IMG/VR virus record: IMGVR_UViG_2529292910_000009
Coordinates: 1-45,637 of that record
From: a virus
Lineage: Duplodnaviria; Heunggongvirae; Uroviricota; Caudoviricetes
Length of the DNA: 45,637 bases
Direction: 5' to 3' (one strand)
The position numbers are program-made. Below, one piece after another: positions 18,001-21,000 of this stretch (the first letter of the stretch is position 1; every line of letters starts with the position of its first letter).

Positions 18001-21000
18001 GACTGCGGCGTAACAGCATATTGAGCGTCACCGTACTTTCGGTCCCCTCAATACGCACACGTCCGTAGACAGCAGTCTTCCCTTTCACCGTCACCGAAAC
18101 CGCATACTCCCCCGGATCCATCGTCATTCCGTAATATCCACCTTCACGGGTCACTGCCGACGCACTGGTGCCGCTGAGCGCATCCGGTGAAACTGTCAGC
18201 GCCGTCAGGGTAATATTTGCTCCTGATATCGCCTCACCATCAGGAGATTTCAGCGTCCCCGAAACAACAACACTCACACTCAACCTCCGTTAAACACTTT
18301 TTTACGGGCAGACAATGCACTGTCTGCCCCCTGTTTGATCCCAAGTTGCTCAACAAAACTCTGATAATGCTGCGCAGCCAGCCCCGATTCTGCGCCACCG
18401 GCAGCATCCTTACTGAAAGCGCGAAACAACATCCAGTCCACCAGTGGGTTAACATAAGCATCTTCCAGTGGAACTGGCGTATCATCGTCCTGCGTCAGAA
18501 CATACACTGCCTCCGGTATGCCGGTAATGATTTCTGCCGTATGCGCCTGGTTGAGCGCATCCACATAACGCTGTCCCTGTGCCGCGGCGACATCCCGTTG
18601 TGCGCCAGCATTATCCCGTTGCGCAGCTGCCTGTGCCCTGGCAGCTTCTGCTTCCAGTTTAGCCACCCGGCCTGCCATTTCGCGCATCTGCAGTTCCTGT
18701 TGTTGCTGCTCCTGGGCCTGTTGCTGCTGAGCGGCCTGCTGCTCTTCCGGGGTCATCTCATCCGGTGATTTTGGTGTCCCCAGCGCCGCACGAATACGTT
18801 CGACAAATTCCTGTTTCTGCGGCACATCCAGAAGGTTAACCCACAGGTCGAGCACGACGGCCTGCACCTGAGGTGGCAGCCCCTGAATATCCACGGTGTC
18901 TGACGGCGTGGGTGTTACGCTGAGAAAAAGCATTTGAAGGTGGCAAAAGTCTGGAACCACGAGTCCGTTTCGTTTCTGCCAAATTTGCGCATTTTTCATC
19001 ACAACCATCATCGCCTGAAGGCTCGTCATGACTGGAGTTGCCGTCAGATTTCTGCGCACTTTTTTGATCATCAATTTGCGCATTTTTCTGCGCACTTTTC
19101 TCTGTATTTCTGGGGGAGTGTTTGCGCAGTTTAATGTACCGCCGAGCCGTGTCATAACTGATATTGTTCTGACGGCACCAGTCCTGAAGCTTTATGCCGG
19201 TTTTGACATGTTCGCGTCGAAATGCCTGCTCCAGCTTTTTCCAGTCCAGCTTTGCCATGTCACCTTCTGACGTTCTCTGTTAAAAACTGATGCACAATGA
19301 CTGCTGTAAATTTTCAGATTTCACACAGCAGAGCCATGTCTGATTAATGTTTAACCTTATTTAGGTTATATCCGCTTCATTCCACTACAGCACCAGATAG
19401 GCTGCCTCGCGGATAAATGCCAAAGTCTCCTGATATAGAAACCCGTCGCCACATCGAGCGCTGATCAACATTTGTATATTCACTGCGACAGAAAGAATTT
19501 ATTTTATTGAATAGTTAGAAATACAGAATTGCATGCTTTATAAGCATTGACGCACACTTCATTTTTAGCAATATATTCTGTTCTCATAGACGATCAGCCC
19601 TGCATGCACTGCCGGACACCGTCGGCAATTTTACAGACCTAAGAGGCAATACCAAAAAGCTAACGCGCTTTATCAAGACTTGAACAACCAACCAATAAAA
19701 AAAGCACCAGTACCGCTACCAATGCCCATTTCGTCGTTGTTCACAGCATTCTGTGTACCCACTGTATTTCGCGTCATATCACCACGTCAGACAATCCTTA
19801 AGGATTACATAAGATTTACGCATAATAATGCCCATTTTCAACACAGACAAGGGAATTTATATGTTAAATCAAACGCTAACAAAATCTCTTCTTATATTTT
19901 TACTTGTCATAATCGTTTCTGTATCCATCATATACATTGTAAGAACTCCAGTCAGACTTGATGTGAACGATGTCACTGAGATTAACCAGAAACATCCCAT
20001 TATTTTTCTCATCCGGCATGGGGAAAGATGCGATCGCTCCCAAAGAATATGTCTTTCAGCACATGAGGGAATCACAGTAAACGGAGCTAACAAAGCTCAA
20101 CAATATGGAGATAAATTCAGAAGAATGTTTCCATACTACAGTCTCTATTCTACAGACACACTCCGAACAATGCAGACAGCCACTTTTTTTTCGGGAGGTA
20201 AGACAGCAACTATTCCGGACATATCGACATGTGATGATAACGCAGTAAATAATATCCTTAAAATATCAAAATCAGATCATGTTACTGTGATTTTCACACA
20301 TAATCACTGTCTGTCCAGAATTGCAAAAAAAATGAATGGATGGAGATTTAAACCTGATTATATGGGCACACTGGTTCTGCATCGGGAAAATCACAATCTG
20401 ATTCTCGACGGACATTTAAAACCAAACGAGCTTACCCAGTGATCCATTTGTTGATAATGCACTGGCATTGATTCAGGTTATATCTCTCCTCATAAAAAAG
20501 GCCAGCGATTGAGCTGGCTCTGTTAATCGAGGCATTGCATCCTGATGTACTCCTGCAGGTAGTTAACCTGCGCGGTTATCTTGTCGATTCCACTTCGGAG
20601 ACGGTAATAATTGAGTTCAGCATCTGCTGTAAGTCCTGAGCTTTCTCCATCGCCCATGCCGCTGGCTCCGGTCGTTGACTTTGCACAGGTGGCGGCGACT
20701 TGCAGGCGCTTACGCCCAGCAGAAACATCAGCACGGAGACTTTCAATAGTCGCGTTAGCATCAGCAAGCTCCCTGGTGTATCTGGCATCGAGTGCAGCAA
20801 CATCACGCTGGCGCTGCTGTATGTCAGCAATGGTGGCGTTCGCCTGGCTGAGTTTTGTCTTCGCATCATCTCGCTGCTCTTTGTAGGTGATGGCGTTATC
20901 ACGGTAATGGTCTGTTGCCAGCCACAGCGATCCACAACCAAGCAGCAGGACAATAAGCACGCCATACAGCACACGATTCATATCACCACCAACGGATTGC

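Follow-up and report, generated by a model that had tools for sequence, protein, structure and literature searches.

Our analysis concerns an ais-like gene carried by an Escherichia coli prophage in the IMG/VR virus record IMGVR_UViG_2529292910_000009 (Caudoviricetes), which was examined over its whole stretch of 45,637 nucleotides (nt), referred to here as the window. The gene occupies positions 19861..20442 on the + strand and encodes a histidine phosphatase of the Ais/PmrG family with 193 amino acids (aa), identical to WP_000934362.1. The explanation that best combines our observations, and that we regard as moderately probable, is that the gene is a prophage moron switched by the PmrA/BasR system and encoding a periplasmic phosphatase of the lipopolysaccharide (LPS) core. 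Comparison supports the view that a conserved promoter module of the PmrA type drives the gene: a box and a -10-like hexamer are common to five to six diverged lineages borne by phages, in which the DNA around the gene can no longer be aligned. The substrate of the enzyme, its control by PmrA/BasR and any phenotype are what we infer from the sequence of the gene and from its relatives.

The predicted PmrA/BasR-type promoter region

Upstream of the gene lies a direct repeat of the PmrA/BasR type, CTTAAG-GATTA-CATAAG (19797..19813, + strand), which starts 64 nt before the ATG at 19861 and is followed by a candidate -10 region, CATAATAAT (19821..19829, + strand). This region offers two hexamers, CATAAT (19821-19826) at a distance of 7 nt from the box and AATAAT (19824-19829) at 10 nt. 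A preliminary description of this DNA had noted a PmrA-box-like CTTAAG-N5-CATAAG; the box is indeed present, and the PmrA reading is now much better supported than it was from the window alone, because diverged phage lineages have kept both the box and a predicted -10 hexamer. The arrangement is that of promoters in the PmrA regulon, with two hexamers 5 nt apart as a direct repeat and the box in the -35 position before a predicted -10 hexamer. Verified PmrA boxes have the half-sites CTTAAG and XTTAAT with a 5-nt spacer (PMC3973317, PMC10570014) and take the place of the -35 element (PMC10570014); the box of Klebsiella pbgP, CTTAAT + CCTAAG, shows that position 2 of half-site 2 may deviate (PMC3973317). 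The arnB promoter of Escherichia coli K-12 has the same layout as the window, with CTTAAG-GTTAA-GTTAAT followed after 10 nt by TAAAAT, and the K-12 eptA box, CTTAAG-GTTGG-CTTAAT, starts 63 nt upstream of its ATG.

For the comparison of lineages, the upstream DNA of each was anchored at the conserved start codon over 200-260 nt. The window, L018 and L020 share CTTAAG-GATTA-CATAAG, L019 has CTTAAG-GATCA-CATAAG and L021 has CTTAAG-GATTC-CTTAAG, all followed after 10 nt by AATAAT; the same 10-nt gap separates GTTAAG-ATTTT-CTTAAT from TATATT in L024-28, ATTAAG-CGTTA-TTTAAG from AACAGT in L005 and ATTAAT-TGCCT-CATAAG from TATAAT in L007. The -10 hexamers in all lineages are predictions read by eye. 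The box has 0-1 mismatch and begins 64-71 nt upstream of the ATG in every lineage. A column-wise profile gives identity in 5-6 of 6 lineages only at the TTAAG/TAAK cores and the -10 hexamer, and identity upstream of the box falls to the random level. In shuffled sequences a box with at most one mismatch arises at that offset with P = 0.0035-0.013 per lineage. Relatives of the gene from other settings served as negative controls: the paralogues P0036, P0022 and P0031, which lie in islands beside EAL, SPATE or AraC genes, lack the box, as does the copy on IncI1 plasmids. In a Salmonella copy the box is replaced by an insertion sequence element.

Several points weigh against control by PmrA. The product of the shuffle probabilities, about 1e-11, gauges selective conservation and not independent origin, because the lineages share ancestry. 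The box at 19797-19813 carries one mismatch, in half-site 2, and taken alone it is not significant (4 matches with at most one mismatch in the window, against 2.67 expected). The predicted -10 element is ambiguous between the 7-nt and the 10-nt spacing, and the scaffold of Klebsiella pbgP implies about 8 nt from box to -10 (PMC10570014). A compact box was looked for and not found upstream of the chromosomal ais/pmrG genes of Escherichia, Salmonella and Citrobacter, which share only the divergent, arnB-oriented box 345-393 nt upstream of the RHxERC codons. A chromosomal relative with 44% identity, from Dryocola clanedunensis (L029), has the layout of the phage clade, with GATAAT-GTTCC-CTTAAG followed after 10 nt by AATAAT.

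The direct repeat might instead serve another regulator of the OmpR family, such as QseB, or form part of an AT-rich promoter that is constitutive or silenced by H-NS. This alternative draws on half-site 2, which in both the window and L007 departs from the consensus, and on the fact that the box also matches the opposite strand, TTAA being self-complementary. Against it, verified PmrA promoters agree with the box in their half-sites, in the spacer of 5 nt, in the placement over the -35 region and in the distance to the ATG, and the bases that have been conserved coincide exactly with the TTAAG/TAAK cores. We consider a regulator other than PmrA/BasR unlikely.

The preliminary description had also listed two imperfect palindromes in this region, at 19533-19547 and 19793-19806, and both turn out to be chance features. 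The second (AATCCTTAAGGATT) is in fact a perfect 14-mer, of a kind that the window holds eight times (at 14896, 14999, 19793, 21303, 25370, 28331, 30327 and 34236) against about 2.6 expected from block shuffles; the first has 6-base-pair (bp) arms and a 3-nt spacer, and 18 such hairpins occur in the window against 10.7 expected. Conservation of both was looked for in related loci and not found. A role as operators was rejected, since neither palindrome is rarer than chance and neither is conserved. The 14-mer at 19793 arises because CTTAAG is self-complementary, the flanks extending the symmetry by chance in the window lineage only. A scan of 19000-20700 against Rfam at E <= 1 found no RNA family.

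Family, fold and predicted location of the protein

PGAP calls the identical coding sequence of 193 aa, ATG 19861 is the start kept in every diverged lineage, and a Shine-Dalgarno-like AAGGGA, read directly from the sequence, lies 6 nt 5' of it (19849..19854, + strand). An alternative start at ATG 19828 was rejected, being neither conserved nor preceded by a Shine-Dalgarno sequence. The frame contains the three motifs that the preliminary description had recognised as those of an Ais/PmrG-like phosphatase: RHGERCDRS, with the catalytic pair Arg52-His53 (20014..20040, + strand; residues 52-60), FTHNHCL (20293..20313, + strand; residues 145-151) and FKPDY (20347..20361, + strand; residues 163-167).

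That family assignment of the protein is borne out by profile and alignment. With NCBIfam NF011945, the Ais/PmrG subfamily (PRK15416), it reaches 202 bits, the cut-off being 142, and the match runs from residue 10 to 187 over positions 15-199 of a profile of 201; Pfam His_Phos_1 (PF00300) is matched over residues 48-114 only (E = 1e-6, 28.9 bits against a cut-off of 21.7). Alignment with E. coli Ais and Salmonella PmrG finds the catalytic Arg and His residues conserved. Across alignments of 10 and of 45 family members R52, H53, R56, C57, D58, R59, S60, C64, H147 and C150 are invariant, R102 and H149 are nearly so, and the four conserved cysteines are intact in the prophage protein. These alignments show the RHG nucleophile motif and the further active-site Arg and His residues to be intact, with His147 of the FTHNHCL motif assigned by family alignment as the second active-site histidine; the roles of single residues are given by family analogy, without superposition of structures. 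The family is small: at E <= 1e-3, a set of 1.84 billion clusters contains 244 representatives of it, chiefly from Enterobacteriaceae and Pseudomonas.

A search of PDB sequences with the protein found only weak superfamily matches (E >= 0.03) and no close solved structure. An AlphaFold model built from the 45-sequence alignment (mean predicted local distance difference test, pLDDT, 91.2; predicted template-modelling score, pTM, 0.84) consists of an N-terminal helix spanning residues 2-27 and then an alpha/beta domain. The top 50 Foldseek matches of the model in the PDB are all histidine phosphatases, with probability 1.00 and template-modelling scores of about 0.5-0.65, among them RosC, the C-terminal domain of MutT1, phosphoserine phosphatase, SixA and PGAM5. 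The model thus shows a predicted branch-1 histidine-phosphatase fold across the whole domain.

The fold bears on the name "transcriptional activator AfrS", which one source gives to a truncated relative, P0066, and on a further paralogue, P0022 (L107 925-3585), which directly follows two genes for AraC-family regulators. These two circumstances would fit an AfrS-like activator of transcription. The prophage protein has a complete histidine-phosphatase fold, a full catalytic set and a membrane anchor, and has no DNA-binding domain; the name AfrS could not be traced in the literature searched, where a search for AfrS/AfrR returned nothing specific. A function of this kind is in our judgement highly improbable.

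As to the substrate, with NCBIfam NF052369, the PmrG equivalog, the protein scores 113.4 bits, below the cut-off of 170, and its substrate may therefore differ from that of PmrG, which counts against the enzymatic half of our proposal. By sequence the protein is a paralogue and not an orthologue of PmrG. It might keep the proposed fold and periplasmic site and act on another substrate, such as the phosphate or pyrophosphate of heptose I, the 1-diphosphate of lipid A or a phosphorylated periplasmic molecule. Such a shift would accord with the low equivalog score, with an identity of just 39% to K-12 Ais and 41% to Salmonella PmrG, and with the occurrence of several diverged paralogue clades in one genome (chromosomal, prophage and IncI1 in O104:H4), which suggests specialisation. 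It sits less well with the retention of all the features that distinguish Ais/PmrG (RHGERCDRS, FTHNHCL, KPDY and the cysteine pattern) and with the PmrA box, which implies co-regulation with the LPS-modification regulon. A different substrate is thus a possibility to be taken seriously, although we think it the less likely outcome.

As for location, the preliminary description had proposed an N-terminal signal or anchor, and a hydrophobic segment is found at residues 9-27 (19885..19941, + strand; mean Kyte-Doolittle value 3.06 over 19 residues), inside the helix of the model. The segment lacks a cleavage site of the AxA type and is directly followed by a conserved RTP. Residues 9-27 are probably a signal anchor rather than a cleaved signal peptide and would put the catalytic domain on the periplasmic side, a reading with which the four conserved cysteines agree.

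The locus and its distribution

The holin, lysozyme (21317-21850), Rz and terS genes of the late region all lie on the - strand, and the ais-like gene is antisense to them. This orientation had been given in the preliminary description, as had the AT-rich character of the DNA, which has a GC fraction of 0.36-0.42 over 19250-20450 against 0.50-0.57 in both flanks. On one side the gene meets the last late lysis gene, encoding an Rz-type protein (20523..20981, - strand; named from the PGAP annotation of identical O104:H4 DNA), which converges on it. Between the two lies a GC-rich hairpin, the inverted repeat GCCAGC-N6-GCTGGC (20501..20518), called as a terminator on the - strand; it has an A-run on one side and TCTGTT on the other, the + strand tail being weak. 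Because these tracts flank the hairpin, it is likely to terminate transcription in both directions. On the other side lies the 5' part of terS, the small terminase gene (18836..19258, - strand, start codon at 19258), which is truncated by a deletion at 18888/18889.

The term moron denotes a transcription unit that a phage genome has acquired and that is independent of its neighbours (PMC3594210). The ais-like region is absent or replaced at the same junction in related phages, its base composition is unlike that of its flanks, and a predicted promoter-like module and a hairpin terminator are present around the antisense gene. Judged by this layout, it is probably a self-contained lysogenic-conversion unit, or moron, between Rz and terS. 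In the phage-borne clade, whose proteins are 60-100% identical across IMG/VR and RefSeq loci, the gene is always antisense and immediately follows the last lysis gene, and is accompanied by any of four lysis cassettes and by several kinds of terminase. Phage 933W has bor in the same slot between Rz/Rz1 and terS, on the opposite strand, and in the prophage of L006 the slot is empty. The plasmid copy in L005 adjoins a fragment of a GH108 endolysin gene and is therefore derived from a prophage.

The upstream region proves shorter than had been thought. The preliminary description had credited the gene with an upstream region of its own, which by the positions given would measure some 600 bp; the 5' DNA peculiar to the inserted gene, with its predicted promoter, comprises only about 75 bp (19786..19860, + strand), as delimited by the blastn boundary and the conservation profile across lineages. 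The segment 19425-19785 is phage backbone common to prophages without the gene, the blastn match to L006 ending at 19785. It contains the remnant of a gene for a small late-region lipoprotein with an LLVGC lipobox (19600..19761, - strand), which has two in-frame stops and was recognised by tblastn with the intact 51- and 60-aa lipoproteins of L006 and L007 (65-74% identity). On this evidence the pseudogene belongs to the phage backbone and is not part of the ais-like unit. The small - strand reading frames in 19260-19860 were rejected as real genes, being fragments of this pseudogene, and a - strand terminator called at 19727-19702 falls within it.

The lipoprotein gene is intact, at 51-60 aa, in many other lambdoid prophages, where it stands just after the lysis genes, and the module is matched in about 300 complete E. 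coli genomes. In L006 it is directly preceded by the counterpart of a 37-aa membrane reading frame with a C-terminal hydrophobic tail, which in the window lies just upstream of Rz (20983-21096, - strand); the arrangement in L006 suggests that the 37-aa frame and the lipoprotein gene form a two-gene lysis-accessory pair. Two further features lie at window 19557-19600 and 19441-19470: a nearly invariant non-coding stretch downstream of the pseudogene (CTTCATTTTT(C)AGCAA(A/T)ATATTCTG...), and, in the lysis-terminase spacer, a GC-rich motif of the CCCGTCGCC type, which on the - strand resembles cosN of lambda.

Of 5,426 complete E. coli genomes, 43 contain the region of 1.26 kb with an identity of at least 99%, among them the lineage of the 2011 O104:H4 outbreak, and diverged copies raise the total to 83 genomes. 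In the O104:H4 outbreak strains it lies within an Stx-phage-like prophage devoid of stx, and the Stx1 phage GER2 carries it as well. The apparent splitting of the gene in GER2 is an artefact of annotation: the record annotates the 3' part only and the frame is intact. O104:H4 carries three members of the family, one chromosomal, one in the prophage and one on an IncI1 plasmid. The last is found on pESBL-EA11 (L103 1150-1734) at the traG position, encodes a protein with 38% identity (E = 2e-48) and belongs to a group that accounts for 1,440 plasmid matches, 1,383 of them on conjugative plasmids. The paralogue P0036, 43% identical and listed in 817 blocks of the collection, has an island or plasmid context (L104 1464-6582), where it is preceded by an EAL-domain gene and followed by genes for two hydrolases and a SPATE autotransporter.

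The prophage in the window is short-tailed and Stx-phage-like, and it is defective, having lost terL and part of the portal gene. It is a deletion derivative: at 18888/18889 (18516-18889) terS runs directly into internal sequence of the portal gene. Compared with the O104:H4 prophage it lacks about 3.8 kb, made up of the 3' portion of terS, the complete terL and the 5' portion of the portal gene. In strain AST198 the identical terS breakpoint is joined to another left partner, a hint that recombination may favour this site. Near the truncated packaging genes lies a tail-fibre-like reading frame of 679 aa (16244-18283, - strand) with long Gly-X-Y repeats of the collagen type.

With the defective state of the prophage and the decay of the neighbouring lipoprotein gene in view, the ais-like gene might be taken for a functionless passenger. 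Frameshifted alleles could be cited to the same effect: the gene contains a T8 homopolymer (20184..20191, + strand; codons 108-111), and frameshifts are found exactly there in two independent lineages, L022 and L028/P0066. They could reflect slipped-strand phase variation or homopolymer sequencing error. The other observations point away from a passenger. The frame is intact and 99-100% identical in the 43 complete genomes, which include intact prophages; the ratio of nonsynonymous to synonymous substitution (dN/dS) between lineages is 0.17-0.25, with dS from 0.65 to saturation (above 2), and the protein is therefore under purifying selection; and the promoter elements have been kept while the flanking DNA was randomised. 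We accordingly think it very unlikely that the gene is without function.

Proposed mechanism and known systems

Our observations suggest a model for the prophage gene as a PmrA/BasR-switched LPS-core phosphatase. Phosphorylated BasR/PmrA would bind CTTAAG-N5-CATAAG in the -35 position, 7-10 nt upstream of the -10 hexamer, and Fe3+, Al3+ or mild acid would then induce the gene at the same time as arn, eptA and ais of the host. The N-terminal helix would tether the protein to the inner membrane, its catalytic domain facing the periplasm, where the phosphatase may remove a phosphomonoester from the LPS inner core with phospho-His53 as the intermediate. If it acts as PmrG does, the target would be the phosphate on heptose II, the loss of which would reduce the negative charge of the surface. 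PmrG dephosphorylates heptose II (PMC8129183, citing Nishino 2006), and BasR binds the ais promoter and activates ais (PMC12419081). The benefit can only be a matter of speculation; it might lie in extra dosage or a variant of core dephosphorylation under PmrA-inducing conditions in the gut, or in altered adsorption of phages that depend on the LPS core.

Deletion of pmrG alone left polymyxin B resistance unchanged in PmrA-constitutive E. coli (PMC8129183), which tells against the change in polymyxin sensitivity that the preliminary description had suggested, and by analogy the polymyxin phenotype of the prophage gene may be weak. Given this result, effects on metal tolerance or phage adsorption may matter more than the minimal inhibitory concentration of polymyxin. 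The polymyxin difference reported among O104:H4 strains (PMC3486847) cannot stem from the ais-like gene, as all three strains carry it.

A wider and distinctly more tentative version of the model, which we consider possible but on balance doubtful, extends it to a clade of lambdoid and Stx-type prophages that would carry in the bor slot an LPS-core phosphatase directly controlled by host PmrA/BasR. On exposure to Fe3+ or acid, lysogens would remodel the inner core beyond the capacity of the chromosome, which may affect tolerance of cationic peptides or metals and the adsorption of LPS-core-dependent phages, and thereby provide signal-dependent superinfection exclusion; the T8 tract might give phase variation.

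The homology of the gene is already annotated in RefSeq and is not new. No description of a prophage-borne Ais/PmrG or of a PmrA-regulated moron was found in the literature searched, and a survey of O104:H4 prophages that lists morons names lom/ail and bor and leaves the ais-like gene unmentioned (PMC3486847). The new element is the predicted PmrA wiring of a prophage gene, which makes for a concrete prediction. Should both this wiring and the activity on LPS prove true, the gene would be a clean case of a host stress regulon extended by a prophage with a regulated enzyme that remodels the envelope, and a simple system in which to follow heptose-phosphate removal in colonisation, in metal and peptide tolerance and in the masking of phage receptors; if not, it is ordinary, previously annotated cargo.

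Among known systems the closest is chromosomal Ais/PmrG itself, with which the prophage protein shares the NF011945 subfamily, a length of about 190-200 aa, the RH[GA]ERCDRS, FTHNHCL and KPDY motifs with the conserved cysteines, an N-terminal export or anchor segment and a PmrA-type box upstream. Unlike the chromosomal genes, which adjoin arnB/pbgP divergently, the ais-like gene is borne in the late region of a prophage and has a predicted promoter of its own, compact and class-II-like, with its box 64 nt from the ATG; and the N-terminus of its product, unlike that of Ais, is very hydrophobic and lacks a cleavage site of the THA|A type. The other mobile paralogues, at the IncI1 traG position, in the EAL/SPATE islands and under the name AfrS beside AraC genes, have the same fold and motifs at 38-57% identity; they differ from the phage-borne clade in lying outside prophage late regions, in the case of the IncI1 copy inside the tra operon, and in having no PmrA box at the corresponding position.

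In its setting the gene resembles bor of lambda and 933W, which likewise lies antisense between Rz/Rz1 and terS. Predicted independent transcription of a gene for an envelope protein would be a further likeness, bor being expressed in the lysogen according to the 933W record. The two proteins are unrelated, however, Bor being an outer-membrane lipoprotein and the ais-like product a predicted phosphatase of the periplasmic type, and it is the ais-like promoter that bears a predicted box for a two-component regulator. Prophage morons under host two-component systems are known from Salmonella, whose prophages carry PhoP-dependent genes. These offer a parallel in logic, as prophage cargo plugged into an envelope-stress regulon of the host; the ais-like gene would differ from them in that its regulator would be PmrA/BasR and its cargo duplicates a member of the same regulon.

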